From Candidatus Saccharimonadales bacterium (GTDB taxonomy: Bacteria > Patescibacteriota > Saccharimonadia > Saccharimonadales > JAGQMS01), in the NCBI GenBank assembly GCA_038317375.1, contig JBBQBM010000001.1:1447-65446 (forward strand): 64,000 nucleotides of DNA, in the 5' to 3' direction. Positions within the stretch are counted from its first letter, which is position 1; each line of letters starts with the position of its first letter. The position numbers and the translations under genes were made by a program. Positions 1,759-59,384 of this stretch are shown here, piece after piece. Under the pieces are notes generated by a model. That model saw only the letters and a list, made by a program, of their open reading frames with translations, was not told the origin of the DNA and searched no databases.

Positions 1759-2483
1759 ATGACTAAGATTAATTTAAAACAAGGGTTCTTATTACAGGGT
1801 TTTCAGATCTTGCTGTTAATAGTTACGGTAGGCTGCTTATTTGGTCGACACCGTGGAATTCAACTAACGATACACGGAAGATAACTGTTAGCGGCGAGGG
1901 AACCGTAAAAGCAGCACCCGACTCGTATCAATTTACGCCGTCCTATGAAGAGACCGGCACCGAACCAGACGCCCTAATTGCCGCTATGACAACTAAGGCC
2001 AATGACGTAACAGCAAAACTGAAGGAACTTGGCGTGAAAGAAGACGACATTGCCTTGCAGTCAAACGCCTATAACCAAAGTTGGCTAAATACTGGCGAGA
2101 GCCAAGTTGTTAGCTTTTCACTGACGATTGAAGTGGCAGATAAAGCGCTGGCGCAAAAAGTGCAGGACTATCTTTTGACTACTTCGCCTCAAGGAGCAAT
2201 TAGTCCGTATTCAATCTTTAGTGGCACAAAACAAAAGGATCTAGAAAAACAGGCACGCGAAAAGGCAATTAGTGATGCACGCTCAAAGGCTGAAGAAATT
2301 GCCAAAGAAACAGGCGTTAAGGTCGGAAAAGTTATTGAGGTTAGCGATGGCTATTCCGGTGGTGGTGTTGTCGCCTTAGAAGATAAAGCTAGTAGTGCCA
2401 CTAGCGCAGCCTTGAGCTTGCCAATCCTGAGCGGCAAACAAGAGGTTGGCGTTAGCGTGACAGTCAGTTTTGCGATCAAATAA
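1759..2483 (+). pseudogene. SIMPL (DUF541) periplasmic protein gene interrupted by a frameshift
   Basis: ATG 1759 (RBS GAGGGGG) encodes signal/TM peptide MTKINLKQGFLLQGFQILLLIVTVGCLFG and hits TAA at 1882-1884. The SIMPL hallmark ITVSGEGTVKAAPD starts at 1881 in another frame that runs into ORF 1986..2483. Confidence 0.6.
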
Positions 2484-3114: not shown

Positions 3115-3651
3115 ATGAAAATAACTAACTCAAAAGACTGGACCGGTATAGCCATAGCAGTCGCACTAATTAGCTTCGCTGTAGTTAGCCGAGTTTTGCC
3201 ACACCCTGCAAACTTTGCGCCGATAGCTGCTGTAGCACTTTTTGGAGGTGCAATCCTACCGCGTAAGTGGGCGATTAGCTTGCCGTTAGTGGCGATGGTA
3301 ATAAGCGATCTATTTATTGGGCTACACCCGCTAGTTATTTTTACCTGGGGTAGTTTTGCGGCGATCGCACTAGTTAGTAGTTATCGTTTTGGGAAGCTAT
3401 CGGCCAGTAACGTTGTGTTTGGCAGTATTGGTGCTTCAATCTTGTTTTACGTTGTTTCTAATTTTGGCGTTTGGATCGAAGGACGTTTGTATGCTCGGAC
3501 GTTAGAAGGGCTAGCGCAGTGCTACGTCAACGCTCTACCTTTCTTTAGGAATACTCTTGCTGGCGATTTAGTTTATGCCGGGCTATTATTTGGCGCCTAC
3601 GCTCTAGCAACCCAGGCTATATATAAAACAAAAACTGCAAATAATACTTAA
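3115..3651 (+). CDS. membrane protein, putative B12-related transporter component (DUF6580/ECF-S-like)
   Basis: Starts 3 nt after the DUF4430 stop. Multi-TM protein with the PHPANFAPIAAVALFGGA motif; function inferred from riboswitch operon context. Confidence 0.6.
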   Translation: MKITNSKDWTGIAIAVALISFAVVSRVLPHPANFAPIAAVALFGGAILPRKWAISLPLVAMVISDLFIGLHPLVIFTWGSFAAIALVSSYRFGKLSASNVVFGSIGASILFYVVSNFGVWIEGRLYARTLEGLAQCYVNALPFFRNTLAGDLVYAGLLFGAYALATQAIYKTKTANNT

Positions 3652-3667
3652 CACGTCAAGTATTATT
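3640..3667. repeat. palindromic repeat copy 1 (AATAATACTTAACACGTCAAGTATTATT)
   Basis: Overlaps the stop codon at 3649-3651; same motif as 9888, 35990, 38472 and 59314. Confidence 0.8.
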
Positions 3668-3714: not shown

Positions 3715-4380
3715 ATGGGTAGTAAAATTCGAAAATCTATCAATGTGGGATATGCCTCGATTCCTAACAGGCGTCTACACCGACATATAAAACGGCAACT
3801 TCACCACATTCATATGCAGCAACTCGGCTGGCATCGCCAGTGGAAAAACTGGCGTTACAAGAACACCACATTATTACTTGTCAGCTTGTCGCTATTCTTC
3901 TTTTTATTATCAACTCGCTGGTTAGATGGCTCAATTAGCTCACTTGGTTCGAGCGGGTACGTTGGTGCGTTTATTGTCGGCATGTTATTTGTTTCTATAT
4001 TTACAGTTGCACCGGCCTCAGTTGTTTTATATCACCTAGCTGATTCGTTACATCCTCTAGAGATAGCAGTTATTGCCGGGGCAGGTGCGATGCTTAGTGA
4101 TTACCTAATCTTTAGGCAATTAAAAAACGGTTTGTTCGACGAGCTAACCCCGCTTTTTAACAAATTGACAACCCACAGAGTTACCAAACTATTTTACACA
4201 CCATATTTCTCGTGGCTGCTACCTTTTATCGGGGCGCTGATTATTGCATCGCCAGGACCTGACGAGATTGGTATAGGGTTAATGGGTGTATCAAAAATAA
4301 AACCTTGGCAATTTATGCTAATCACTTTTACCTTGAATTCTGTCGGGATATTTTTTGTAGTTTTGCTCGCTAGAACTTAA
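3715..4380 (+). CDS. hypothetical multi-pass membrane protein
   Basis: 221-aa ORF with a basic N-terminus and several TM helices; start uncertain. Confidence 0.6.
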   Translation: MGSKIRKSINVGYASIPNRRLHRHIKRQLHHIHMQQLGWHRQWKNWRYKNTTLLLVSLSLFFFLLSTRWLDGSISSLGSSGYVGAFIVGMLFVSIFTVAPASVVLYHLADSLHPLEIAVIAGAGAMLSDYLIFRQLKNGLFDELTPLFNKLTTHRVTKLFYTPYFSWLLPFIGALIIASPGPDEIGIGLMGVSKIKPWQFMLITFTLNSVGIFFVVLLART

Positions 4381-6083
4381 GATTCGGCGGAATCCTTCTC
4401 GTCTTCGTCAGACTTGGCTAAGAGCAAGTTCAAGTGTTTTTCGCGGTAGTTTTTGAACTCGGTTTTATTAAAACCATTGCGCTTTATGAAGGCGGTTATT
4501 TTTTCGGTGCCGATGTAGTGGGGCAAAATTACATACGAAGCTCCATCGCCGTAAAGATCAGCGGCTTGCTCGATACTATCAGCTGTGCAAATGAAGACAG
4601 CCTCGGGGTTATTAGTAGCCAGCCAGTGCCCTAAAAAGGTATTAGTTTTATTGTCGCTGATTGTTGATACTACCAATCTAACTTTGTCTAGATGCATCTC
4701 TTCAAGTAGCTCGGGATCGGTTGCGTCACCATACAAATAATGAATATGCTGCTTCTCAAGAATATCTATGATTTCGGGATCATAATCGACGACCACAAAA
4801 CGTTTTCCCATATCTTTAAAAGTCTTAATGAATTCAACCCCACCTTTTCGATAGCCAAATAGCGCAATAGAAAAATGATTAGCCATCTCTCGTTGTTCAA
4901 AGTTAGTGGTTTTACGTTCAAAAAATCGTAGTTGGCGCTCGAATTTAACATATAGCTCGTCGTCGTACTTCATAAAATATGTCGATACCGCAAAAGTTAT
5001 TAGTGCTACAAAAGTTAATGTGTCGGACGCTTTTTGGCTAACTAACCCGGCGCTAAGTGCGGCGAACATTAGAACCAAAGAAAATTCACTTATCTGGCTC
5101 ATCGAAATGGCAGATTTAAAACTTGCCCTTTTTGTGTAACCAATGATCCCCATGGTGATCATTACAACCAGAGGCTTTAAGAATAGCGCGACGGCGGCAA
5201 GAACTAGAGCCGTTGTGACTACGCCGGTTAATAGACTCGGCGTCATCGACTGGCCAAGTGCAATAAAGAAAATGACTATAAAGAAATCACGCAAAGGTTT
5301 TAATCTTGATGCCATCTCGCTACTGTAAGGCAGGCTAGCTAGGCTAACACCAGCAAATAGTGCACCGATCTCGATAGAGAATCCAACAGACTCAAATAGC
5401 GCTGCCAAACCAAGCCCCCAGCCAAGTCCAAAAAGGAGTAGCAACTCCTTAGAATTTTCTAGAGTACGAGTTAGCTTTGGTATTAGATAACGGCTCACAA
5501 AATAAACTACTCCTGTTAGGCTAATCCCTCGTAGTAGAAGTAGGATAATATTTAGGACGCTACCATCATTACCGCTACGAATAGCAATGATAATTTTAGC
5601 TGCTGTGGCGACAACGTCTTGAACTAGTAAAATACCGATTGTGATCTGAGCATAGAGTCGGGTTGTTTCTTTTTTGTCGTTCAGGAGTTTGACTATGATA
5701 ATAGTACTACTCATCGCAAGCGCTAGACCAATGATTCCAGACTCTAGCTTTCCGAAGCCAAGCAGACGGCTAATGAAGAAGCCGGTGATAGTCACCAGGC
5801 TAACTTGGACACTTGAGGTAATCAGAACGGTTTTACCAACCCGAGTGAAAATCTTGACACTAAGATCGAGGCCGATAATGAATAACAGAAGTGCGATGCC
5901 AATACTCGAGAAGACCTCAGTTGTTCCGGGTGTTTTTATAATGTTGAGAGCCGCTGGCCCGGCAATAATTCCGGTCAGGATATAACCGATTATTAACGGC
6001 TGGCGCAGGAGCTTCATAAGAAGTGCAACAATCGTGCCGATTCCAATGACTAATGCTAGTTCAGAGAAAATGTTCGTTTCCAT
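4377..6083 (-). CDS. monovalent cation:proton antiporter (CPA2/Kef-type) with C-terminal RCK/TrkA-N domain
   Basis: 568 aa. N-terminal Na+/H+ exchanger-like TM domain, then a FGYRKGG.. Rossmann-like RCK domain. Confidence 0.85.
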   Translation of the reverse strand: METNIFSELALVIGIGTIVALLMKLLRQPLIIGYILTGIIAGPAALNIIKTPGTTEVFSSIGIALLLFIIGLDLSVKIFTRVGKTVLITSSVQVSLVTITGFFISRLLGFGKLESGIIGLALAMSSTIIIVKLLNDKKETTRLYAQITIGILLVQDVVATAAKIIIAIRSGNDGSVLNIILLLLRGISLTGVVYFVSRYLIPKLTRTLENSKELLLLFGLGWGLGLAALFESVGFSIEIGALFAGVSLASLPYSSEMASRLKPLRDFFIVIFFIALGQSMTPSLLTGVVTTALVLAAVALFLKPLVVMITMGIIGYTKRASFKSAISMSQISEFSLVLMFAALSAGLVSQKASDTLTFVALITFAVSTYFMKYDDELYVKFERQLRFFERKTTNFEQREMANHFSIALFGYRKGGVEFIKTFKDMGKRFVVVDYDPEIIDILEKQHIHYLYGDATDPELLEEMHLDKVRLVVSTISDNKTNTFLGHWLATNNPEAVFICTADSIEQAADLYGDGASYVILPHYIGTEKITAFIKRNGFNKTEFKNYREKHLNLLLAKSDEDEKDSAES

Positions 6084-6125
6084 TTGTACCTAAGAAACAT
6101 TATACTGGTATAAGCTTAAACAATT

Positions 6126-6611
6126 ATGAAAACATTCTTTCATCGTATTTCTAGCAAGGTTTCGATGGCCATGGGATCGCCTTATTCGTTTATGCTCGCG
6201 GTCTTGGTGGTAATAATTTGGGCTGTGTCTGGACCTGTTTTCGCCTACTCTCAAACCTGGCAACTGGTTATTAACACTGGGACAACTATCGTTACGTTTT
6301 TGATGATCTTTTTAGTGCAGAACACTCAGAACCGTGACGGCAAGGCAGTACAACTAAAACTCGATGAGTTAATTCGTTCAACGACAGGAGCCAGAAATGA
6401 ATTTGTTACTTTGGGTCTTCTCAGCGATGAAGAATTAGAAGCTCTAGACAAAGACTTCCAATTAATCGGGGCGAAAAAGAATAGTCACCTACTTGCCGAC
6501 ATTCATGTTCATCTGGACGCCGAAAGGGCTCGCCGCCACAAATCGTTAGGCGATAGAATCAAAAACGTCGTTAATCATTCATCTATTCAGCAAGATCCTC
6601 CAGAAAATTGA
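6126..6611 (+). CDS. low-affinity iron permease family protein
   Basis: WQLVINTGTTIVTFLMIFLVQNTQNRDGKAVQLKLDELIR is the signature region of this family. Confidence 0.8.
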   Translation: MKTFFHRISSKVSMAMGSPYSFMLAVLVVIIWAVSGPVFAYSQTWQLVINTGTTIVTFLMIFLVQNTQNRDGKAVQLKLDELIRSTTGARNEFVTLGLLSDEELEALDKDFQLIGAKKNSHLLADIHVHLDAERARRHKSLGDRIKNVVNHSSIQQDPPEN

Positions 6612-6834
6612 CAAAGACCTTATGGTTATAGTAGGATAATACCCACGTGTCAAACTAGTGAGGAAAGTTGGGTCTTTCCGGAACAGAGGAAAATAAAAAC
6701 GGTAACTACCAAAATTTGTAGTTACTAAAAAAGACATCGGAGTGGAGGTTTTTATGAGTATTAAAGTACTCGTTGTACGTTCGAGGCGGAAGCGCATCAA
6801 TGTTCGCAAAATACGGCCTAACTGGCAAAAGTTT

Positions 6835-7476
6835 CTAGTTGTTTAAGGATGCAATGGCTGCGTCGATCTTTTTAGTAAACAGTTCTAGCGAGCCAACTTC
6901 GGCGCTATCGAGCTTTTGACCATTTAGTATAAAAGTCGGAGTACCATTAATGGCATATTTGTCTTCGCCTTCTTTTCTGTCGGCGTTAATAGTGTTATTG
7001 ACGGCTTCACTCGCGAAATCTTCTTTGAATTTTGTTAAGTCTAGGCTCAGGCTGGTAGCATAATTTTCGAATACGACTACGGGGCTAGTTAGTGACGACC
7101 ATGATGTTTGATTCTGGTAGAGTAGCTCGTACATTTCAAAAAACTTACCCTGTAAAGAAGCTGCTTCTGCGGCGCGATGTGCGGCGACGGCATTTCTATG
7201 TATTGTTGTTAACGGAAAGTTACGAAAAGTGAACTTCAACTTATCGCCGTAGTCAGTTCTGATTTGTTCAATTATCGGGAAGAAACTACCACATGCTGGA
7301 CACTGAAAATCCCCGTACTCCACTAGCTCAACTCCACTCGTTCCTGCACCAGACGAATGTTTACTAACAACGGCAGTTGTAGTGCTTTTCGTATCTGCTT
7401 TGTCTTTGGTGAAGAAAAATACCCCGCCAATTAAGGCTATAACTGCTAGTAATACTATGCCAAATTTCTTGTCCAT
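6835..7476 (-). CDS. DsbA-family thiol:disulfide oxidoreductase (membrane anchored)
   Basis: N-terminal TM anchor and a thioredoxin-fold CPAC active site (FQCPACGSF). Confidence 0.85.
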   Translation of the reverse strand: MDKKFGIVLLAVIALIGGVFFFTKDKADTKSTTTAVVSKHSSGAGTSGVELVEYGDFQCPACGSFFPIIEQIRTDYGDKLKFTFRNFPLTTIHRNAVAAHRAAEAASLQGKFFEMYELLYQNQTSWSSLTSPVVVFENYATSLSLDLTKFKEDFASEAVNNTINADRKEGEDKYAINGTPTFILNGQKLDSAEVGSLELFTKKIDAAIASLNN

Positions 7477-7548
7477 ATATCGTAACTATACGACAAATCA
7501 TGAGGTGTCGCTAGCATAAGATCCCCAAAAAGGTTTAATATAAGCAAT

Positions 7549-8559
7549 ATGAGAATTGTATTACTTATAGGATTTTTTATTATTTCGTGCTTCAACATCT
7601 TACTAATTCGTAGCTTCGAATATATGAGCGTGCGCGAGCTCAAGCGCCAAGCCCGGAGTGGGAATATTAAAGCCGCCAGAGTTTATAAGGTTCGAGGTGT
7701 TTACGGTATTCAAGTCTGGATTTTATTATGGGGGGCAGTTGGTATAAGCACTTCAGCCGTGGTCTTGATTCTTAATAGTTCAGTAGCGACGTGGCTGGCA
7801 ATTGTTCTTAGCATTCCAATACTCGTTTTTTTGCACGCTGTATTGCCACGTATAAAGAGGCCCAAGCCAAGCATTAATCTTGCCTCGTCTATTAGCCCGC
7901 AGTTGGAAGCTGTTTTACGCCTATTTCGACCCTTACTTTTAGTCGTGACCCGACTTGTCGGACGCTGGATAAAAGACGAACCATTCACCCGCATACACAG
8001 CAAGGAAGAGCTTCTAGAAGTCTTAAACCATTCTGAAATGGCAACACGCGTCAGTAAAGACGAAGTTTTAATAGCGACTTCAGCGCTAACATTTGGAGAT
8101 GAGAATATAGGCAAATTTATGACGCCAATCGGTGTAGTTAAAACGGTTGCAGAAAAGGACGTACTAACTCCAGTTATGCTCGACGAACTTCATGACAGTG
8201 GTTTCTCGCGCTTTCCGGTTAAAGGCAGTGGCAATACCTACGTTGGTACTCTCTATTTCAAAGACGCTGTCAATATGGAGACTAGTCATGCCGTTAAGAA
8301 TATTATGCGAAAAAGTGTTTTTTACGTGAACGAATCGGCCCTACTAGATCAAGCTTTGAAGGCTTTCTTGAAGACCCAGCACCATTTGTTTATGGTGGTG
8401 AATGAATATGAAGACGTCGTTGGTGTTATTACAATTGAAGATATTTTAGAACGAATAATCGGCAAAAAAATTGTTGATGAATTTGACCAGTACGATGATC
8501 TTCGTGTGGTAGCAAAATCCCTCGCAGAAAAGCAGGTGAGCCAAGCAGACCATGTCTGA
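7549..8559 (+). CDS. CNNM/HlyC-CorC-type transporter (DUF21 TM domain plus CBS pair)
   Basis: N-terminal TM region followed by two CBS-like repeats (..VVGVITIEDILERIIG..). Confidence 0.75.
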   Translation: MRIVLLIGFFIISCFNILLIRSFEYMSVRELKRQARSGNIKAARVYKVRGVYGIQVWILLWGAVGISTSAVVLILNSSVATWLAIVLSIPILVFLHAVLPRIKRPKPSINLASSISPQLEAVLRLFRPLLLVVTRLVGRWIKDEPFTRIHSKEELLEVLNHSEMATRVSKDEVLIATSALTFGDENIGKFMTPIGVVKTVAEKDVLTPVMLDELHDSGFSRFPVKGSGNTYVGTLYFKDAVNMETSHAVKNIMRKSVFYVNESALLDQALKAFLKTQHHLFMVVNEYEDVVGVITIEDILERIIGKKIVDEFDQYDDLRVVAKSLAEKQVSQADHV

Positions 8560-8572
8560 TGTATAATCTGTA

Positions 8573-9889
8573 GTGATTATGCAAAGAGTTTTATCAAATG
8601 AAGTTAAGTCACATGTCGGCAAGTCAGCTTTAGTTACTGGCTGGCTTCATAAAAAACGTCTTCTCGGCGGACTGACTTTTATAAATATCCGGGACCGCGG
8701 TGGCTTAATCCAAGTGCTTATCGAGGACAAAAAAGAAGTCGAGAAGTTGCGCGGTTTACAAATCGGCACCGTCTTATCGGCTGAAGGCGATGTCATTAAA
8801 GAGGGCCGAGCACCTGGTGGGGTTGAAATGCACAACCCAAAACTTACGATTTTAGTACCGGTGGAGCACGAATCACCGATCGAAATCGACAAGCCACTCG
8901 ATCATAAGTCAGAAAACTTAAATACGCTTTTAGATAATCGTGTTGTTGGACTGCGTAACATTAAAGAAACGGCAATCTTCAAAATTCAGGATCGAGTTTT
9001 AGAAGGTGCTAGGCGCTACTTCTACCAAAACGGTTTTACTGAAATGAAGACTCCGAAACTTCTCGCAAAGCCGACAGAAGGCGGTGCAGAGGTTTTTACT
9101 ATGGACTATTTTGGCAAGACCGCGAGCTTAGCGCAGAGTGCCCAATTTTATAAGCAGATAATGGTTGGGGTTTTTGAACGGGTCTTTGAAATGGGTGGCA
9201 CTTACCGCGCCGAACCAAGTTCGACTACTCGCCACATGACAGAATATGTAACCATCGACTGCGAGATGGGATTCATTACTTTTGATGAACTACGAGAATT
9301 TGCCCATGGGTTACTAAAATCTGTAGTCGATTTTGTTTGGAGTGAATGCCCGGACGAGTTGAAACTATGGAACGCAGAGAAGCCGGTTCTGTCTGATAAG
9401 GCGGCATCAATCACTATGGCCGAAGTTCACGAACTTTACGAAAAGGCGACAAAAGATATTGTCCAGGACAAAAAAGATCTAACCCCAGCCGAGGAAAAGT
9501 GGATCTGTGAGTATGCCAAGGAAAATCTAGGGACAGAAGCAGTTTTTGTAACGGAATGGCCATCAAGTTCGATGAAGTTTTATCACAGGAAGACTGAAGG
9601 CAATGAAGAGATGTGTGATCGCTCAGACTTTTTGTTCCGTGGTCTCGAGATCATGACAGCGCCAATGCGCGAGAACCGCTACGACATTCTGATTAAACAG
9701 ATGAAAGAGCAGGGTCTAGACGAAAAGGAAGAGGGCTATCAGGCTTATCTGAGTGCCTTTAAATATGGCCTGCCGCCTCACGGAGGCTTCGGGCTTGGGC
9801 TCGAGCGACTTACGCAGAAAATAGTCGGTCTTAACAACATTAAAGAAGCGACCCTATTCCCACGCGACATCAATCGCCTCGCGCCATAA
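8573..9889 (+). CDS. aspS: aspartate--tRNA ligase, archaeal/eukaryotic type (class IIb)
   Basis: 438 aa. OB-fold N-terminus, YRAEPSSTTRHMTEY motif 2 region, and C-terminal HGGFGLGLERL...FPRDINRLAP typical of type-2 AspRS. Confidence 0.85.
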   Translation: MIMQRVLSNEVKSHVGKSALVTGWLHKKRLLGGLTFINIRDRGGLIQVLIEDKKEVEKLRGLQIGTVLSAEGDVIKEGRAPGGVEMHNPKLTILVPVEHESPIEIDKPLDHKSENLNTLLDNRVVGLRNIKETAIFKIQDRVLEGARRYFYQNGFTEMKTPKLLAKPTEGGAEVFTMDYFGKTASLAQSAQFYKQIMVGVFERVFEMGGTYRAEPSSTTRHMTEYVTIDCEMGFITFDELREFAHGLLKSVVDFVWSECPDELKLWNAEKPVLSDKAASITMAEVHELYEKATKDIVQDKKDLTPAEEKWICEYAKENLGTEAVFVTEWPSSSMKFYHRKTEGNEEMCDRSDFLFRGLEIMTAPMRENRYDILIKQMKEQGLDEKEEGYQAYLSAFKYGLPPHGGFGLGLERLTQKIVGLNNIKEATLFPRDINRLAP

Positions 9890-9915
9890 TAATACTTAAC
9901 ATGTTAAGTATTATT
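9888..9915. repeat. palindromic repeat copy 2 (AATAATACTTAACATGTTAAGTATTATT)
   Basis: Perfect 28-bp palindrome overlapping the aspS stop codon. Confidence 0.85.
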
Positions 9916-15543: not shown

Positions 15544-16510
15544 ACAACCGATTTTTATACTGGCACCGATGGACGATGTCACAGACACTGTCTTTCGCCA
15601 GATTGTGGCGTCTTGCGCTGCACCGGATTTATTTTTTACGGAGTTTGTGAATGTCGATGGGCTGCAAAGTCCTGGCCGGCCGGCTTTAATGCCAAAAATA
15701 GCCAAAAAGGGAGAGAAATACCCAGTTGTTGCACAGGTTTGGGGTAAAAAGCCAGAAAATTTTGAAAAAACCGCTAGTGAACTAGTCGATATGGGCTTTG
15801 CGGGAGTCGACATCAACTTCGGCTGTCCTGTAAAAACTGTCGTCAAGAACAGTTGTTGCTCGGCAATGATACTGCCTGATAACAGGGATGCGGCAGTTGA
15901 GATTATCAAAGCCGTCCAAAAGGGCGTGAATGGACGTGTACCGGTTAGTGTCAAAACTCGTTTAGGCTTCAAGGAGATTGACCTCAGCTGGATCGAACTA
16001 CTTCTTAAACAAAAACTTAACATGTTAAGTATCCATGCTCGAACGTCCAAAGAGATGAGCAAGGTCGACCCGCATTGGGAGGTTATGCCAGAGATAATAG
16101 CAATGCGCGACAAACTGTCGCCCAAAACCCTGATTGTTGGTAATGGCGATATTATGAATCGAGAGGACGGGCTCAAGCTAGCCGAGGAGCACAACCTTGA
16201 CGGTATTATGATTGGCCGTGGAATCTTCACCGACCCTTATGTCTTTGCAGAAAGTTCGCCCTGGGCAAACAAAACAAAGAAGGAGAAGCTGGAACTATTT
16301 CAAAAACACGTCGAGTTGTTTGCAAGAACTTGGGCTAAGGGCGAGCGCCGTTTCGAAACGCTCAAGAAGTTCGTCAAAATCTATGTCAACGGTTTCGACG
16401 CTGCGGCCGAACTACGCGCCGAGGTGATGCTCACGAGTACGCCAGAAGAGCTAATAGCTCTAATCGTGGCAGCGATAAATGCCGATACTACCGCCAACCC
16501 GGTCGACTAG
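15530..16510 (+). CDS. dus: tRNA-dihydrouridine synthase
   Basis: LAPMDDVTDTVFRQ..., GVDINFGCP and SVKTRLG motifs of the Dus TIM barrel. Confidence 0.9.
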   Translation: MTVAKQPIFILAPMDDVTDTVFRQIVASCAAPDLFFTEFVNVDGLQSPGRPALMPKIAKKGEKYPVVAQVWGKKPENFEKTASELVDMGFAGVDINFGCPVKTVVKNSCCSAMILPDNRDAAVEIIKAVQKGVNGRVPVSVKTRLGFKEIDLSWIELLLKQKLNMLSIHARTSKEMSKVDPHWEVMPEIIAMRDKLSPKTLIVGNGDIMNREDGLKLAEEHNLDGIMIGRGIFTDPYVFAESSPWANKTKKEKLELFQKHVELFARTWAKGERRFETLKKFVKIYVNGFDAAAELRAEVMLTSTPEELIALIVAAINADTTANPVD

Positions 16511-18124
16511 GTCGAAGCCTTCGACCGCCCATTTATAAAACTCTTTGTTGCTGAGCCAAAGCGCCGTATCGCTGATTGCGAGAGTGCAGGGAAGTTTTGT
16601 GTCGTCGGTACACTCCGGAGTAAAGTTTTCGATTGTGCAAATAGACTCATCGCCAAGGACGTCGCCCATCTCACTGTTATGAAATAACGCCTCACCAAAA
16701 CGATTAATGTTTTTCTTTTCAAGATAGTCGTTTAGTCGGTATAAATCCTGGCCCCAATCACGACTCGAATCAACTAATACTGGTTGATGGCCAAAGTGCT
16801 CTAAAGTTCTGCCAATAGTGTTTTGGTACCCGATGGGGGTTCTAAGCGTCCCGATGAGTACTGGAGTGTACAGCAAAGCAAGTAAGAATATGATCAGATT
16901 CTTGAGTTTGTTATGAGTAAGTTTGGCGAGGACTATTGCTGCGGCAATATATAGAAATGGCCAAGCACCAAATACGTGCCGGATACCAATATTTATATGG
17001 CTGGTTATAGAAGTGATTACGAAGATGCTGGCAAAAGACAGCAGAATTAGCAGATTCTTACTCCGCCTATATTTGAAAATTACGAACCAAGCGGCGACGA
17101 GGTTTGCACCAATGATTACCTCGGGTAGCTTTATTGCCATACCTGTCGGAAAAAATAACAGATGCCCCTGCGTGTTGCGCATGCCATACAGATACGAGTC
17201 GTGACCCCATTGGTTGTGATGGACTAGGTTCACAAGCCCGCGGATATAGGCATAAGCCGGAACGGGCGAGTCGAAGGCCCAGGCTAGGCCGGGGTGACTT
17301 TGTTTAAAGCTTGCGGCTCCTTCAACTAGCGGATCGCTCTGAGGGGTTCTGCTTAATTCTTGGGCAAACGACGGAGCTCTGAACCCATATTGCAGCCAAA
17401 TTCCGAAGAATAATATAGCTGCGATGGCGACGAGGTGTTTTAGGATGCGTTTTTTGTTTGGCCAGTTCTTTTTTATGACAATAACCCCGGCAATCGGCAC
17501 TAGCAGTAGGCCGCTAAACTTAGCGCTAATTATTAGTAGTGTCGCTAGGGCAAAAAGCAGCAAATGTTTTCTGTCTGGTTTGGCCCAATAGTTCAAGGCG
17601 CCGAGCAAGAAGACGACTGCACCGAGGCCTAAGAATATGTCGTTGGTTATTAGATGCCCGTGCCCGTTTAGGGTTGGATCGAGAGACAGTAGCCCAGCAG
17701 CAAGTAGCCCAACCTTTTCGCTTGCTAGACGTCGACCAAGCAAAAATACGACATATATCAGTGTGACGGTGATAAGAATGCTTGGCAGGCGGCCGACTAA
17801 CAAAATCTTTCGGGCGCTAGTGCGACTGTTATAAATCAGATCTTTCCCGGCCGGCCACTGATTACCTTCGTCCCAGCCCTTAAGTTGTTTGGCCGGTTTA
17901 GTGTCGAGGGGCAAGATTGCCGTTCCGGCCAGCAGCTTAAATAGCGATGGGTGCTCTGGGTTTAGGCGGAAGTCGCCAGTTGTGACATATGTATAGCCGG
18001 AGGCTAGGTGTGCGCCTTCGTCAATTGTTTGCGAATCGCGAGTCGCCAGATAAAAGTTAATCGCAAATACAAAGGCTAAGATAACAAACAAAAGCTTCGG
18101 TATTTTTTTGATTTTGTTTTTCAT
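16460..18124 (-). CDS. glycosyltransferase family 39 (ArnT/PMT-like, lipid-carrier dependent)
   Basis: Trimmed to MKNKIKKIPKLL, because the longer ORF runs into the tRNA. Multi-TM protein with an early DEGAH..Y motif region. Confidence 0.75.
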   Translation of the reverse strand: MKNKIKKIPKLLFVILAFVFAINFYLATRDSQTIDEGAHLASGYTYVTTGDFRLNPEHPSLFKLLAGTAILPLDTKPAKQLKGWDEGNQWPAGKDLIYNSRTSARKILLVGRLPSILITVTLIYVVFLLGRRLASEKVGLLAAGLLSLDPTLNGHGHLITNDIFLGLGAVVFLLGALNYWAKPDRKHLLLFALATLLIISAKFSGLLLVPIAGVIVIKKNWPNKKRILKHLVAIAAILFFGIWLQYGFRAPSFAQELSRTPQSDPLVEGAASFKQSHPGLAWAFDSPVPAYAYIRGLVNLVHHNQWGHDSYLYGMRNTQGHLLFFPTGMAIKLPEVIIGANLVAAWFVIFKYRRSKNLLILLSFASIFVITSITSHINIGIRHVFGAWPFLYIAAAIVLAKLTHNKLKNLIIFLLALLYTPVLIGTLRTPIGYQNTIGRTLEHFGHQPVLVDSSRDWGQDLYRLNDYLEKKNINRFGEALFHNSEMGDVLGDESICTIENFTPECTDDTKLPCTLAISDTALWLSNKEFYKWAVEGFDLVDRVGGSIGIYRCHD

Positions 18125-18132
18125 TGATATTT

Positions 18133-18208
18133 TGGTGGGGGCGGTTGGATTTGAACCGACGGCCAAAGGATTATGAGTCCTCTGCTCTAACCACTGAGCT
18201 ACGCCCCC
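18133..18208 (-). tRNA. tRNA with CAU anticodon (elongator Met or Ile2-lysidine type)
   Basis: Reverse complement GGGGGCGTAGCTCAGTGGTTAGAGC..CTCATAA..GGTTCAAATCC..CGCCCCCACCA folds as a cloverleaf; CCA is encoded; C11-G24 elongator-type D stem. Confidence 0.9.
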
Positions 18209-18247
18209 GTAAAGAAAACCGATACTCGAACTTGTTCGAGTTGCTCT

Positions 18248-18338
18248 GGCAAGCTTCGCCTGCCCACAGAACTTTCATGTATGTAACAAGTTACATCCTG
18301 AAAGATTCTCTTGCGAACAGCCACGGGCTATTCTCACC
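18248..18338 (-). ncRNA. tRNA-linked multi-hairpin module, copy 3 (inverted orientation in this window)
   Basis: On the minus strand: GGTGAGAA, AGCC-CGT-GGCT, GAATCTTTC, ATGTAA-CTTG-TTACAT, GAAAGTTC, GGCAGG-CGAAG-CTTGCC. Collinear with the copies at 20111-20199 and 58675-58763. Confidence 0.45.
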
Positions 18339-18354
18339 ACTGAGCTATACCCCC
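18335..18354 (-). repeat. partial duplicate of the 5' end of tRNA 18133-18208
   Basis: Minus-strand GGGGGTATAGCTCAGTGGTG matches tRNA positions 1-20 (GGGGGCGTAGCTCAGTGGTT) at 17/20. Confidence 0.7.
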
Positions 18355-18529
18355 TCGTCGACGTGTGATGGTAAGATAACCAGTCTGCCGACAAAACAAG
18401 TTTGCTCGGACAGACTTAGTTATCTTACAAAGCCGTCTCCTCTCAAATTCGCCAATTCCCTCGCGAATTTGGTTGGGAAGTGCACGTAACAGATGAATTA
18501 TAACAGATGACGTATAATGAGATTAGGCT

Positions 18530-18973
18530 ATGCTCGATAAAATCAAAAATAATCTTGAGTCAAAAAAACTTCGCTCTTACTTTTCGCTTGGGGCGATGGG
18601 CATTTATCTAATCGCTATAGTTTCGCTCTCTGTGGCTTGGGCGAGTTCAAAGGCAATCCAACGGAACTATCAGCTCATGAAGCAGATTTCGGTGCTTGAG
18701 CAAGAGGCCGACATTGCCGAGCAAAAAGTAGCAAATCAAAAGCTCGAGAACGAATACTATAAGTCAGATGATTTTTTAGAGTTAGCCGCCAGGAGCCAAC
18801 TTAATAAAGCAGCACCCGGTGAGAAGTTGATGATTGTCCCGAAGAGTGTGGCTTTGTCAAAATTGCCGGCCGGTAGCGATCAAACAGTAGCGGTGGTTGA
18901 TTCTTCAAAAGAGAAGCTCCCGAATTGGCAAGCCTGGCTACAGTTCCTAACCGGCCGCGGCATAGAGGATTAA
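18530..18973 (+). CDS. septum formation initiator (FtsB/DivIC-like) protein
   Basis: N-terminal TM helix, coiled coil and the ..ELAARSQLNKAAPGEKLMIV motif. Confidence 0.7.
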   Translation: MLDKIKNNLESKKLRSYFSLGAMGIYLIAIVSLSVAWASSKAIQRNYQLMKQISVLEQEADIAEQKVANQKLENEYYKSDDFLELAARSQLNKAAPGEKLMIVPKSVALSKLPAGSDQTVAVVDSSKEKLPNWQAWLQFLTGRGIED

Positions 18974-19818
18974 CCTCGCTTTGCTCCATGGTTAGTTGCG
19001 TTTAAACCATTGCGCACGTGTTTTCTTAGTACTTCTATGTCGGCATGATGACTTAGCAGTTCACGTAAAACCACCGATGCCTGATGGGTGAACATGTCCC
19101 ACCCAGAAACAATCGTAAGTCCAGCTTGTTTGGCGAGTGTTATTAGATTTGTGTTTTCAGTCCCAAAGGTGACATCAGCAACTGCTTCGCACTTACTCAC
19201 GATCTCTTGTGTATAGAATGTATCATCTATGGTTGAGCCAATGCGGGATGCGTTTACTAACAAGTCTCCGGACGTATCGGCTAAATCTTCTAGCGAGCAT
19301 ACGGAAGTTACATTATCGAACTGCTCCTTAATAGCCTCTGCCGTGCTGTCCGTTCGATTGCATAAGATTATCTCACTTGGCCTATTAGTCGAGTTGGATA
19401 GGGCCATGACTAAAGTTTTAGCCACTGCGCCTGCGCCGACAATAACTACTCGCTTACCTGAAATATCGTATTTTTCAGTGATAGCCGCCAGTAAACCTTC
19501 ACCACCTTGATAGTGTGCTTGTAAGACTCCGTTTTGGTTTGTGATTATTCCTACTCTTCCGCTTACCCTTACCGTTTCTGAGCATTCGTCTACTAAGTCG
19601 GAGATATTGGAATCGTGCTCAAACCCTGCCGTGATGGCACCGCTGAGTTGTAAGTTTCGCAATCCTTCAACTAGTGGTTCTGCGGAGGCGTTGCGAAACA
19701 GCATGTACACTGCGTTTATTCCTACTTCTTCAAAGTAGGGGTTATATATGTCCAGCCCAGTGCCGTTCTTATCAGTATGCATCCTCGCGATGAGCTTAGT
19801 ATCGGTATTAATCTTCAT
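18970..19818 (-). CDS. shikimate/quinate dehydrogenase family protein (AroE-like)
   Basis: 282 aa with the Rossmann motif VVIVGAGAVAKTLV and an AroE-like N-terminal substrate domain; specificity unknown. Confidence 0.6.
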   Translation of the reverse strand: MKINTDTKLIARMHTDKNGTGLDIYNPYFEEVGINAVYMLFRNASAEPLVEGLRNLQLSGAITAGFEHDSNISDLVDECSETVRVSGRVGIITNQNGVLQAHYQGGEGLLAAITEKYDISGKRVVIVGAGAVAKTLVMALSNSTNRPSEIILCNRTDSTAEAIKEQFDNVTSVCSLEDLADTSGDLLVNASRIGSTIDDTFYTQEIVSKCEAVADVTFGTENTNLITLAKQAGLTIVSGWDMFTHQASVVLRELLSHHADIEVLRKHVRNGLNATNHGAKRG

Positions 19819-19882
19819 AATAACAGCATAACAAAGACGGGCTTCTCAAGTGTTATCAAAAAGTAATCGGTTTGCCGGTGGA

Positions 19883-19911
19883 TTGACATTTATCTCTGTT
19901 AGAGCTATAAT
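19883..19911 (+). promoter_or_regulatory. sigma70-like promoter for the initiator tRNA
   Basis: TTGACA, 17-nt spacer, TATAAT; all read directly. Confidence 0.7.
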
Positions 19912-19953
19912 TCGAGCCTACATTTGCGCCTTATTGCCTAGCAATTGTTGACG

Positions 19954-20028
19954 TGCGGGGTGGAGCAGTGGCAGCTCGCGTGGCTCATAACCACGAGGTC
20001 GCAGGTTCGAGTCCTGTCCCCGCAACCA
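19954..20028 (+). tRNA. tRNA-fMet (initiator-type, CAU)
   Basis: TGCGGGGTGGAGCAGTGGCAGCTCGCGTGGCTCATAACCACG..GGTTCGAGTCC..CCCCGCAACCA. A11-U24 in the D stem and a weak U1-A72 end pair are initiator features. Confidence 0.85.
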
Positions 20029-20037
20029 AAGAAAATC

Positions 20038-20066
20038 ACTCACCCCCGTGGTGGGTGTTTTTCTTT
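20038..20066 (+). terminator. intrinsic terminator after tRNA-fMet
   Basis: CACCCCCGTGGTGGGTG hairpin followed by TTTTTCTTT. Confidence 0.7.
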
Positions 20067-20199
20067 GGTACGGAACCAAGATTTGAAACTGCGACCGAGT
20101 AGAGGTCGTAGGTGAAAACTGCCTGCGGCAGTTTGTAAACGAATCTTCTCTTGCAAACTGGTTTGCAAAGATGAAGTTCGGGGGTCGCCGGAGGTGACC
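20067..20199 (+). ncRNA. tRNA-linked multi-hairpin module, copy 1
   Basis: GATTTGAA, CGACC-GAGTAGA-GGTCG, GGTGAAAA, CTGCC-TGC-GGCAG, AAACGAATCTTC, TTGCAAA-CTGG-TTTGCAA, GAAGTTCGGGGG, GGTCGC-CGGAG-GTGACC. Confidence 0.45.
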
Positions 20200-20209
20200 G
20201 AGTCCTGTC
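20199..20209 (+). repeat. 11-nt duplicate of the tRNA-fMet T-loop/T-stem segment
   Basis: CGAGTCCTGTC is identical to 20008-20018. Confidence 0.6.
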
Positions 20210-20302
20210 ACAGATATTTTACTGCGTAAAATTCCGCGACCCCGCCTCAACTCGGCGACATTCGTCATCCGGGCTTCCGGCCTTGCGAAAGTCCACAGGA
20301 CT

Positions 20303-20319
20303 TCCTCACCCCGCAACCA
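20303..20319 (+). repeat. 17-nt duplicate of the tRNA-fMet 3' end
   Basis: TCCTCACCCCGCAACCA versus tRNA 20012-20028 TCCTGTCCCCGCAACCA (15/17, the last 11 identical including CCA). Confidence 0.7.
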
Positions 20320-20327
20320 TGAAAAGT

Positions 20328-20354
20328 GCCCGTCCTCATGACGGGCTTTATCTT
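20328..20354 (+). terminator. intrinsic terminator
   Basis: GCCCGTC-CTCAT-GACGGGC followed by TTTATCTT. Confidence 0.7.
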
Positions 20355-20494
20355 GGTTATGCTTGCATCACAGCCTAGTTTCTATAAAACTGATAAGGTG
20401 GAAAAATCACTAACTAACCATTCGGGGTGTGTTAATGCCTCAATGGACAGAGTTGAACCTCGATCTATAAGAGATTCGCCAGCCTTACTTAATA

Positions 20495-35944: not shown

Positions 35945-35989
35945 CGGGGCATTATTTTACACAAAAGGCACTATTGCAAGCATGAGCGG

Positions 35990-36017
35990 AATAATACTTA
36001 ACACGACAAGTATTATT
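35990..36017. repeat. palindromic repeat copy 3 (AATAATACTTAACACGACAAGTATTATT)
   Basis: Intergenic, between two minus-strand genes. Confidence 0.8.
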
Positions 36018-36031
36018 TAGCTGACCTTTGT

Positions 36032-38387: not shown

Positions 38388-38471
38388 TTGCTACCTCTAT
38401 TTATGCTTATGCATATAGTACCTTCGTGTCGAGGCGCATGCAATATGAATATTGAAGGTGCGGTATTAAAC

Positions 38472-38493
38472 AATACTTGACGTGTTAAGTATT
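38472..38493. repeat. palindromic repeat copy 4 (AATACTTGACGTGTTAAGTATT)
   Basis: Reverse complement of the copy-1 core; intergenic. Confidence 0.75.
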
Positions 38494-38545
38494 ACCCTTG
38501 ACCGTATCGGTTATAAAAATACCTCAGACATGCTGAGGTGTTTTT

Positions 38546-38596
38546 TGGTAGCGGCGACAAGAATTGAACTTGTGCCCTTAGGCTTATGAGTCCTGC
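38546..38596 (-). repeat. 51-nt copy of the 3' half of tRNA 39928-40004, inverted
   Basis: Reverse complement GCAGGACTCATAAGCCTAAGGGCACAAGTTCAATTCTTGTCGCCGCTACCA matches 39954-40004 at 49/51. A bidirectional hairpin at 38521-38546 flanks it. Confidence 0.85.
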
Positions 38597-39927: not shown

Positions 39928-40004
39928 GGCGGCGTAGCTCAGTTGGTTAGAGCGCAGGACTCATAAGCCTGAGGTCACAAGTTCAATTCTTGTCGCCGCT
40001 ACCA
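39928..40004 (+). tRNA. tRNA with CAU anticodon (candidate tRNA-Ile2, the TilS substrate, or elongator Met)
   Basis: GGCGGCGTAGCTCAGTTGGTTAGAGC..CTCATAA..AGTTCAATTCT..CGCCGCTACCA. Lies 8 nt upstream of tilS. Confidence 0.85.
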
Positions 40005-58626: not shown

Positions 58627-58763
58627 GTCGTTCCAATGGATTTGAATTTATGACACGCCAGAAAGGGTGTCGTGGGTGAGAAATGCCTGTGGCATTTAGG
58701 AAACGAATCTTCCGATGCCAACTTGTTGGCAATCGAGAAGTTCGGGGGTCGCGGAACGTGACC
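58627..58763 (+). ncRNA. tRNA-linked multi-hairpin module, copy 2
   Basis: GATTTGAA, GACAC-GCCAGAAAGG-GTGTC, GGTGAGAA, ATGCC-TGT-GGCAT, AAACGAATCTTC, TGCCAA-CTTG-TTGGCA, GAAGTTCGGGGG, GGTCGC-GGAAC-GTGACC. Confidence 0.45.
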
Positions 58764-58838: not shown

Positions 58839-59309
58839 ATGGATTCATCGCAAAAAGCTAAATACATTATCGAGAACACTGGCATTATGGTTATCGCAAC
58901 GGCCGACAGCACAGGAAAGCCGTGGATATCACCCGTAGGTTTTACGTACGACGATAATCACAATCTATATTGGGTATCGTATAAGAAAGCCCTACACTCC
59001 GAAAATATTGTCGGTAGACCAGAGGTTGCTATTACTATTTTTGGCAAGTTGCCTAGTGGCGATACAGATGGAGTTTATATAGACGCAACGGCTCATGAGT
59101 TAAGGAATGATCCTGAGATTCGACTGGCAATGTCTTTATTTGCCAAAAGACGCCCACAAATTTCTAAATTCACGGTGAATACGGTAAGAGACGTTACTTG
59201 CGATGCGGTATGGAGAATGTATAAAGCTGTCCCTGTGAGTATCTCAAAACGTGCAGACAAAGTAATCGACGGACAGTCGATTACTGTTCGCGAACCGGTG
59301 ACCCTATGA
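58839..59309 (+). CDS. pyridoxamine 5'-phosphate oxidase family (FMN-binding split barrel) protein
   Basis: Trimmed to MDSSQKAKY (TATACT 6 nt upstream). ..MVIATADSTGKPWISPVGF....LYWVS pattern. Confidence 0.7.
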   Translation: MDSSQKAKYIIENTGIMVIATADSTGKPWISPVGFTYDDNHNLYWVSYKKALHSENIVGRPEVAITIFGKLPSGDTDGVYIDATAHELRNDPEIRLAMSLFAKRRPQISKFTVNTVRDVTCDAVWRMYKAVPVSISKRADKVIDGQSITVREPVTL

Positions 59310-59313
59310 TTGA

Positions 59314-59341
59314 AATAATACTTAACATGTTAAGTATTATT
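59314..59341. repeat. palindromic repeat copy 5 (AATAATACTTAACATGTTAAGTATTATT)
   Basis: Identical to the copy at 9888-9915; lies 5 nt after the stop codon at 59307-59309. Confidence 0.85.
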
Positions 59342-59384
59342 TAGTAAGTTTAATTCATTCAGCCGAACTGATATATTTGGAGTA

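Follow-up and report, generated by a model that had tools for sequence, protein, structure and literature searches.

How can one folded sequence stand upstream of one tRNA gene, joined to a copy of its 5' end, and downstream of others, joined to copies of their 3' end? In 64,000 nt of DNA from a Candidatus Saccharimonadales bacterium (the window), such a module, here called M, occurs in both arrangements. A preliminary description had taken this as a sign that the link between the module and tRNA ends may be functional, as a plain integrase scar does not easily predict the two arrangements together. We analyzed the upstream copy, which lies in the spacer before a tRNA-Met(CAU) gene, together with its relatives in other genomes.

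The spacer upstream of tRNA-Met(CAU)

On the minus strand, the locus reads in the order promoter-like box, leader B, tRNA-Met stub, M, AGAGCA, terminator-like hairpin and intact tRNA-Met (Table 1). Every element of the preliminary description was recovered at its position or at most 2 nt from it, including the long hairpins (18444-18471 and within 18355-18444), which correspond to leader B. Folding of the 292-nt spacer was far above that of shuffled sequences (z = -5.2, with 0 of 200 shuffles equally good). No ORF was found in the 146-nt insert (18209-18354), and the 121-aa plus-strand ORF at 18124-18489, which had been dismissed before, exists only mechanically: it lies antisense to the tRNA, M and leader B, and is not credible. 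Units made of a stub and M account for spurious ORFs of this kind and for contig breaks inside tRNA genes.

The 20-mer reported to match the 5' end of the adjoining tRNA does so at 17 of 20 positions, and it takes in the first 2 nt of M. The stub covers the acceptor 5' strand, the D-stem 5' strand and the 5' part of the D-loop. On the other side of M, AGAGCA is identical to positions 21-26 of the tRNA-Met of two genomes of the same genus (G001 and G002) and closes the D-stem around M; nothing beyond position 26 is present. Because M has tRNA sequence on either side, with positions 1-18 to its left and the D-stem 3' strand to its right, it lies inside the D-loop of a tRNA fragment. It is an insertion in the D-loop of a partial tRNA-Met copy, in place of TT. 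The copy of the tRNA 5' end that had been seen next to the module is thus present, but M lies within the fragment and does not merely abut it. The remaining tRNA positions (1-18 and 21-26) sit 44 nt upstream of the intact tRNA-Met.

The promoter-like box recurs in the form TCTGTTATAAT before many tRNA genes of the same genome, and it went unscored in a strict sigma-70 scan. It is likely to be the start of a transcript that comprises leader B, the stub and M, with or without the tRNA. The hairpin in the spacer between AGAGCA and the intact gene, ACTCGAAC-AA-GTTCGAGT, has arms that resemble the T-loop and its inverse, and together with the T run it was classed as terminator-like by a consensus scan. 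Since this spacer has a terminator-like hairpin and no -10 box before the intact tRNA-Met, the latter is probably made by read-through from the upstream promoter.

Table 1. Features of the tRNA-Met spacer and the two other M copies of the window (positions in the window).
Feature	Position	Strand	Basis or detail
Intact tRNA-Met(CAU), working gene	18133..18208	-	ARAGORN; Rfam tRNA 70.9 bits
Spacer	18209..18241	-	hairpin 18241-18224, then T-rich ATCGGTTTTCTTTAC 18223-18209 (15-mer)
AGAGCA, D-stem 3' strand of broken tRNA-Met copy (tRNA positions 21-26)	18242..18247	-	sequence comparison
Module M, 89 nt, D-loop subfamily	18248..18336	-	cmsearch 80.1 bits, E = 1.2e-21 (family covariance model)
M hairpin H1, triloop, GCCnGnGGC	18334-18315	-	
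M hairpin H2, long, apex AACTTGTT	18310-18268	-	
M hairpin H3, 7-bp stem, GAA triloop, G.T wobble	18264-18248	-	
tRNA-Met stub GGGGGTATAGCTCAGTGG, tRNA positions 1-18	18337..18354	-	18/18 vs G001/G002 orthologous tRNA-Met
Leader B	18355..18471	-	5' hairpin 18471-18444; conserved 90-nt segment 18444-18355; GAGAGGAGACGG; long hairpin, apex GAGCAAACTTGTTTTGTC; ...CACACGTCGACGA ending at stub +1
Promoter-like extended -10 box TCTGTTATAAT	18497..18507	-	sequence
Sister M copy, downstream type, in T-loop of partial 3' copy of initiator-type tRNA-Met	20113..20199	+	93.5 bits; junction mapped
Sister M copy, downstream type, in T-loop of partial 3' copy of tRNA-Lys(UUU)	58677..58763	+	96.9 bits

The orthologous locus was located in other genomes through its flanking genes, which encode an FtsB-like protein and, at the opposite flank, a family-39-like glycosyltransferase. 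In the same-genus genomes (G002:C8 and G001:C104) a promoter is followed by an AT-rich palindrome and by tRNA-Met (GGGGGTATAGCTCAGTGGTTAGAGCA... / GGGGGTATAGCTCAGTGGTTAGAGCAGTCGG...), and both M and leader B are missing. The AT-rich palindrome before these tRNA-Met genes is a common element in the genome of the window. Two genomes from other genera of the family (G003 and G004) have a plain promoter and tRNA-Met at the locus, with no insertion. A comparison of orthologous loci had been proposed as a check on the stub; the stub sequence is indeed found there, as part of an uninterrupted tRNA-Met, but the module is missing entirely in the same-genus genomes. This pair of an empty and a filled site argues for insertion or replacement and against a conserved leader.

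The stub and AGAGCA together match the first 26 nt of the G001/G002 tRNA-Met at 24/24 positions. Unlike the stub, the intact tRNA-Met of the window has a GGGGGCG acceptor and a GAGGA/TCCTT anticodon stem; it agrees with the G001/G002 allele at 60 of 76 positions (79%) and is closest to the tRNA-Met of G003:C6 (89%). Two different tRNA-Met alleles thus stand side by side at the window locus. As to which of them is the incomer, the stub is the allele of the genus, yet leader B before it is missing in the sister genomes. The G001 tRNA-Met carries a group I intron in its anticodon loop (Rfam RF00028, 72 bits). The acceptor stems of tRNA-Thr, too, differ between sister genomes.

Leader B has relatives of its own, which consist of a 5' hairpin, GAGAGGAGAYGG, a long hairpin with the apex GAGCAAACTTGTTTTGTC, and ...CACAYRTCGACGA ending exactly at tRNA +1. 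They precede Met, Trp, Ile, Lys and Leu tRNA genes in 10 of 41 relatives, at 1-5 copies each, naturally adjoin tRNA-Met genes in G040 and G009, and adjoin the +1 of tRNA-Trp at G000:C38. Leader B had no Rfam match, and it represents a second conserved family of tRNA 5' leaders.

Fold, distribution and tRNA linkage of M

Compensatory changes across 116 copies of M went beyond the controls: 96.3% of the cells were paired, versus 71.2% in shuffles and at most 47% when the partners were slid, and double changes were seen in all 23 pairs. With only the 12 copies aligned from this genome, 17 of the 23 predicted pairs already had compensatory changes. Hairpin H3, which is outside the structure of the covariance model, forms a perfect stem of 7 bp, capped by an RRA triloop, in 82 of the 116 copies; the fifth pair is G.T in 71 of these 82, and the adjacent pairs covary. 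At the level of covariation, these comparisons show that M is a strand-specific three-hairpin structure under selection. The fold matters on the tRNA-sense strand, either as RNA or as sense single-stranded DNA, because the conserved G.T would be an A.C mismatch on the other strand and because the orientation of M is biased 137:3 toward that of the tRNA. With the D- or T-stem of the host fragment as its closing stem, M makes a four-way junction. GGTCGC, with a 5-bp shift, resembles the attP/attB half-sites of large serine recombinases (LSR), but we rejected this comparison because H3 covaries. For compensatory pairing between the short arm a' and the T-stem, a 1-nt register shift in the GTT class confounds the comparison.

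The covariance model found 20 copies of M in the 615-kb assembly that contains the window. M was present in 27 of 41 relatives of the order, at 2-16 copies each, and missing from the other 14. A degenerate motif scan of one genome per species gave more than 118 loci, nearly all of them labeled Saccharibacteria or Saccharimonadales, and a viral contig collection gave 0 matches. Over positions 18100-20400, only tRNA reached the gathering score in Rfam 15, with nothing relevant up to E = 10. No description of the family was found in the literature searched, and the family is apparently both undescribed and large. M is a well-supported new structured element with at least 116 diverse copies, and offers a target for finding new recombination or RNA-processing activity.

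The distance between M and tRNA genes was surveyed for 165 copies located over 214 records, with ARAGORN tRNA calls and a limit of 400 nt. A same-strand tRNA was near 137 of them, with M downstream in 83 and upstream in 54, and an opposite-strand tRNA was near 3; 18 copies were too near a record end to be assessed and 7 internal ones had no called tRNA. The association between module and tRNA that had been noted in the window is therefore real and far from chance (137 of the 147 assessable copies), and both arrangements recur throughout the family in this covariance-model tabulation. Spacing is tight, most upstream copies being 40-77 nt and most downstream copies 64-92 nt from the tRNA. The tRNAs that flank M are of at least 16 identities, and every M-bearing copy has an intact gene for that same tRNA next to it. 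The downstream sister at 58677..58763 is followed by an exact 20-21-nt tRNA 3' end.

Junction mapping indicated that M replaces 3 nt (in model coordinates) and that its left-hand neighbor is G in every case. Of the sites used, namely the D-loop (17/18|21), 24/25|28, 38|42, 46|50 (variable loop) and the T-loop, the last is the most frequent. At the tRNA-Pro locus, M is at 18|21 in G000 and G001 and at 25|28 in G002, which we take for independent events. The nearest relative of an M copy was found at a tRNA of another amino acid in 119 cases, versus 17 for the same amino acid. D-loop copies tend to be each other's nearest relatives and so make up a subfamily, with 86-94% identity between genomes whose coding DNA is about 74% identical. 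The copy closest to that of the tRNA-Met spacer is upstream of tRNA-Phe in G001 (93-94% identical, versus 71-76% for the flanking and coding DNA of the two genomes). One M copy lies outside tRNA sequence, in a duplicated terminator hairpin whose loop it occupies (G000:C11). There are also tRNA fragments that lack M, at 38543-38594 of the window and as tRNA-Lys and tRNA-Met tails in G001; nearly every tRNA fragment met carries some loop insertion.

Copies of M also decay: one is truncated at the tRNA-Pro of G000, and degenerate units are found in G010 and at the tRNA-His of G001. At orthologous loci, some copies are truncated, degenerate or exchanged for another subtype. Because of such copies, these comparisons argue for selection on propagation rather than in place.

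We considered the possibility that tRNA precursors contain M, alone or together with leader B, as a functional RNA domain (acting in processing, stability or attenuation), or that M is a stable sRNA; the host would retain it as useful, and the stub would be kept only as a closing stem. The strong covariation, the conserved G.U wobble, the sequence conservation of the D-loop subfamily relative to coding DNA and the co-orientation with tRNA genes would fit a host-useful RNA. The M copy of the tRNA-Met spacer would furthermore be transcribable from the tRNA promoter via leader B, with a terminator-like hairpin after it, and the apex of its hairpin H2 has AACTTGTT in common with the apex of leader B, which is certainly part of tRNA leaders. 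Yet M is missing at the orthologous locus of both sister genomes and in 14 of the 41 relatives, its copy number ranges from 0 to 16, the copies at orthologous loci are those that are truncated, degenerate or of another subtype, and downstream copies sit behind terminators. A role of this kind seems to us rather improbable.

Candidate mobilizing enzymes and a proposed cassette model

If M propagates, an enzyme might be expected to accompany it. We compared the presence of M with that of enzyme families across the 41 relatives, and none of six families (recombinases, transposases, reverse transcriptase) tracked M. LSR genes were found in 32 of 41 genomes and were uncorrelated with M (M and LSR 20, M only 7, LSR only 12, neither 2), and the same was true of the LSR subfamily that abuts tRNA genes. 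The tyrosine recombinases (a generic PF00589 count) amounted mostly to one Xer-like gene per genome and were likewise uncorrelated with M. The Y1 HUH family (PF01797), present in 12 of 41, was missing from G010, G015, G003, G005, G034 and G039, which have 11-15 M copies each; the IS110 DEDD recombinase (PF02371) was found in 1 of 41, reverse transcriptase (PF00078) in 6 of 41 and none of G000-G005, and TnpB (PF07282) in 1 of 41, a genome without M. These last four families were all missing from the M-richest genomes. Clustering of the neighbor genes of 118 loci gave no recurrent mobile-element gene except LSR, at 4 loci. Because none of the six families tracks M, its propagation depends on a host-general activity, on an unrecognized protein, or on cell-to-cell transfer with recombination.

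LSR genes are unusually common in this order and are often found right next to the 3' end of genes for tRNA-Pro, Gly, Leu, Ala and Ser. They raise the possibility that the units are ordinary decayed att scars of large integrase-bearing islands or prophages, here LSR elements at tRNA 3' ends, with M as the terminal sequence of the island. Islands at tRNA genes classically build up in tandem and show partial tRNA repeats (10.1101/2020.12.28.424599), and at G010:C16 a 4.1-kb LSR element ends beside an M unit and is tandemly duplicated together with it, the two looking stacked. We rejected, however, the idea that this element owns the M at its right end, as it ends in its own vestigial ...CGACCA before the pre-existing M unit. 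In the tRNA-Pro LSR elements, no long tRNA tail repeat was found within 6 kb at the far end. The lack of correlation between LSR and M, the lack of matches in viral contigs and the use of five tRNA positions also speak against an island terminus. Furthermore, 5'-side units are always free of genes. That a plain scar of one integrase at one tRNA would fail, as had been anticipated from the window, is borne out by the occurrence of the same M beside at least 16 tRNA identities. We consider a decayed island scar very unlikely.

We put the chances at about even that the stretch 18209-18354 (146 nt) belongs, as an upstream-type unit, to a family of miniature integrative cassettes that occur in Saccharibacteria and contain no gene. 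At its core, such a cassette would have a tRNA copy that is interrupted by the structured M and whose arms are of variable length. A small DNA of the form [tRNA 5' arm]-M-[tRNA 3' arm] would recombine with a chromosomal gene of matching tRNA identity. If the crossover fell in the 3' arm, the product would be intact tRNA, terminator, fold-back and a'-M-3' end, the form seen at the two other loci of the window; a crossover in the 5' arm would give promoter, 5' stub, M, spacer and intact tRNA, the form seen here. The working tRNA gene would always be regenerated and given the missing signal, and only the spare copy would bear M. Selection for propagation would act on the fold of M, in the form either of RNA or of sense single-stranded DNA that a host or trans-acting factor recognizes, and old copies would decay in place.

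Several units outside the tRNA-Met spacer fit this scheme. At G023:C2, a mini unit and 3.4 kb of cargo come after an intact tRNA-Lys, and beyond them stands a second, complete tRNA-Lys whose T-loop is interrupted by an identical M. A TAnAwT box lies 12-20 nt before the tRNA in 29 of the 48 other upstream-type spacers, and those of the T-loop subtype have TTGAACC-N14-17-TATAAT, of which the -35 part is an inverted T-loop. In downstream units, a'-M-3' end comes after a terminator and a diverged copy, in inverted orientation, of the 3' half of the tRNA. Since both polarities could arise from one architecture, the objection to an att-type origin falls away without any host function. The two arrangements had been read as a hint of such a function for the link between module and tRNA ends, which is not needed: one M-interrupted tRNA cassette, complete at G023:C2, would give both.

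Other features of the window locus count against the cassette. Its 5' arm would be only 18 nt long; the stub and the intact tRNA differ along their whole length, and a simple crossover in the 5' arm does not reproduce the locus; the stub is preceded by leader B, which is missing in the sister genomes; and where other units have a promoter, the spacer has a terminator-like hairpin. For the family as a whole, it counts against the cassette that none of the enzyme families compared tracks M, that no excised circle was seen, and that upstream-type units with an insert above 233 nt were never met in the survey of 165 copies.

An alternative is that M alone is the mobile entity, a MITE-like non-autonomous transposon inserted by a trans-acting enzyme into exposed loops of tRNA-derived DNA. 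Hits in single-copy working genes would be lethal, and M would survive only in tRNA fragments that were already there; these would have arisen separately, for instance through island integration or errors of fold-back replication. In favor of such a transposon are the precise boundaries, with 3 nt replaced at five tRNA positions and always after G, the different sites in the same tRNA-Pro stub of sister genomes, the copy in the terminator hairpin loop, the fragments that lack M and the existence of a D-loop-specific subfamily. Against it, fragment and loop insertion look coupled, and the units come with their own promoter or terminator. Moreover, M has neither terminal inverted repeats nor a target duplication, and no tested transposase family tracks it. 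We regard this transposon as unlikely.

Returning to the cassette, a broader and only tentative proposal is a cassette system that has no protein of its own and can land at any tRNA gene, with M, folded and strand-specific (as RNA or as sense single-stranded DNA), serving for recognition. The target would be programmed by the arms derived from tRNA, and the reaction would be carried out by a factor that is encoded by the host or acts in trans, with frequent tRNA allele replacement and cargo insertion at tRNA genes as by-products. If the cassette reading is true, Saccharibacteria have widespread gene-less integrative units of about 200 nt that rebuild the tRNA gene they enter, on either side of it. 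This would help explain the divergence of tRNA alleles between sister genomes, such as that of tRNA-Met, and the units would mark cargo entry points in these tiny genomes.

Comparison with known systems

Elements that integrate at tRNA genes are known for tandem build-up and partial tRNA repeats (10.1101/2020.12.28.424599; PMC4383910). The closest known systems are tRNA-integrating islands with tandem build-up, of the Islander type or the tycheposons of Prochlorococcus. Like these, M units use tRNA landing sites, regenerate an intact tRNA and leave a displaced partial one (found for 137 of 165 copies; for the window locus, related genomes also have the empty site), and M units and cargo stack at one tRNA, where degenerate remnants pile up. 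Unlike these, M units are gene-less and about 150-200 nt long, and no integrase family tracks them; one conserved structured module serves at least 16 tRNA identities, and it lies inside a loop of the displaced fragment, with both 5'-side and 3'-side forms.

With REP/REPIN-RAYT and the miniature elements of IS200/IS605 (PATEs), M shares its small size, multiple copies, lack of protein, dependence on hairpins and bias of strand or orientation, and its kept fold suggests single-strand recognition. We do not count M among these systems, in view of the lack of a co-occurring Y1 HUH protein (12 of 41 genomes, not the M-richest) and of a fixed target motif: M has no conserved tetra- or pentanucleotide target, only the G at the left junction being constant. 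TnpB is lacking as well, and M is embedded in tRNA-derived sequence, whereas these elements are scattered in intergenic DNA. The distribution of the protein families also speaks against a TnpB/IscB omega-RNA, an IS110 bridge RNA and a retroelement (retron, group II intron derivative or SINE-like).

M resembles integron attC cassettes in being folded, strand-specific, conserved in structure, similar to a recombination site and stacked at a fixed platform. In contrast with attC, it is conserved in sequence besides structure, its platform is any tRNA gene, its units have no ORF, and nothing of the IntI type was found beyond the single Xer-like gene of the generic PF00589 count.

Non-canonical tRNA introns of archaea occupy D-loop, 25/26, variable loop and T-loop positions, which the insertion positions of M resemble. 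M shares with the introns and split tRNAs of Thermoproteales and Nanoarchaeum that a single element family occupies different tRNAs at several positions outside the anticodon. On this reading, which is close to refuted, M would be the counterpart of an intron in a functional tRNA that is split or interrupted. M-bearing copies are incomplete in about 162 of 165 cases: after deletion of M and refolding, ARAGORN called a tRNA in only 3 of the 165 flanks, all three dubious, and one complete copy is found, at G023:C2. The hosts are bacteria with CCA-encoding tRNA genes, the host fragments always have an intact gene of the same identity adjoining them, and the window stub lacks everything after position 26.

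A last likeness is to the group I intron of the orthologous tRNA-Met in G001, as M is a selfish-type insertion in the same tRNA-Met lineage. That intron, however, occupies the anticodon loop of a complete and presumably spliced gene, whereas M is 89 nt long, has no Rfam family and resides in a dead stub.

Leader B and the orthologous tRNA-Met locus

Leader B, the hairpin-rich segment 5' of the partial tRNA-Met stub, is a tRNA 5' leader that is both conserved and structured; it spans ~90-130 nt, and its 3' end coincides exactly with tRNA +1. Among the 41 relatives of the order examined, 10 carry it ahead of genes for tRNA-Met, Trp, Ile, Lys and Leu, and its comparison with Rfam gave no match. 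The apical loop of leader B, AAACTTGTTT, recurs in hairpin H2 of M, the 89-nt three-hairpin module. In the same-genus genomes G001 and G002, the AT-rich palindrome AATAATACTTAACAYGTYAAGTATTATT lies immediately 5' of the orthologous tRNA-Met, at the place held by leader B in the present genome (G000). The anticodon loop of the G001 gene is broken by a ~585-nt insert, within which a group I intron was identified (RF00028, 72 bits); an ARAGORN run made no call for this intron-split tRNA.

Features at the tRNA loci (window coordinates, or genome:contig; L numbers are locus records)
Feature	Location	Strand	Remark
Leader B	window 18355-18471	-	other copies G000:C38:715-845, records L177-L187
AT-rich palindrome	window 3636-3663, 9884-9911, 16005-16032, 35982-36020, 38465-38492, 59306-59344		repeated at gene ends
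Interrupted tRNA-Met	L025 (G001:C104) 2060-2245	-	ortholog of window tRNA-Met
tRNA-Lys array	L174 (G023:C2) 5958-9790		intact tRNA-Lys(UUU), mini M unit, 3.4-kb cargo, complete tRNA-Lys copy
M-variant module	window 20225-20308	-	
M-variant module	G000:C32:3806-3884, 4135-4214; C43:5408-5491; C18:12585-12655		
Short T-loop insert	G000:C13, C42, C46		unlike M; 3' of tRNA-Pro (4308-4383), tRNA-Arg(cct) and tRNA-Asn, respectively
M copy outside tRNA	G000:C11:972-1056		in loop of duplicated 5' half, non-tRNA terminator hairpin
LSR genes	L169 (G010:C16), L170 (G015:C1), L171 (G002:C4), L137, L006, L115; G000:C14:668-1465		convergent to tRNA genes
M-less tRNA(CAU) 3'-half copy	window 38543-38594	-	inverted relative to tRNA-Met 39928-40004 (+)

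A complete interrupted tRNA and other insertion sites

The far tRNA-Lys copy of the G023 array is full length, and its T-loop holds an M identical to that of the mini unit; it is the sole convincing full-length M-interrupted tRNA among the copies examined. The cargo between them encodes a response regulator and a probable sensor kinase, among others.

M-variant modules begin as M does (TGAGAA-H1-TTyGCAAG) and then diverge to GCCGGAAGCC...GAGCTGAGGC. One of them is inverted and nested within the downstream unit (M in a partial 3' tRNA copy) of the initiator-type tRNA-Met. A short insert, GTCATCCGCnnnnGCGGATGTGCA..., occupies M's T-loop position in fold-back partial tRNA copies; several module families are therefore accepted at this site. 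At the terminator hairpin, M and a 50-nt spacer are bracketed by a 19-nt repeat (ACAAAGAACCTCCAGAGG...).

Serine recombinases and tRNA alleles

Large serine recombinase (LSR; PF07508) genes face tRNA genes for Pro, Gly, Leu, Ala and Ser, overlapping their last few bases. PF07508 was found in 32 of the 41 relatives versus 2 of 14 control genomes, and the 4.1-kb LSR element of G010:C16 is duplicated in tandem.

Same-genus genomes have strongly differing tRNA alleles. The tRNA-Thr(CGU) acceptor reads GCCACCT in G000 (C32) versus GCCGGAG in G001 (L032, G001:C10), where the stub has GCCGATA; such differences suggest that tRNA alleles are often replaced. The M-less fragment of the third tRNA(CAU) extends from the anticodon loop to CCA and lies 1.3 kb from its parent gene.
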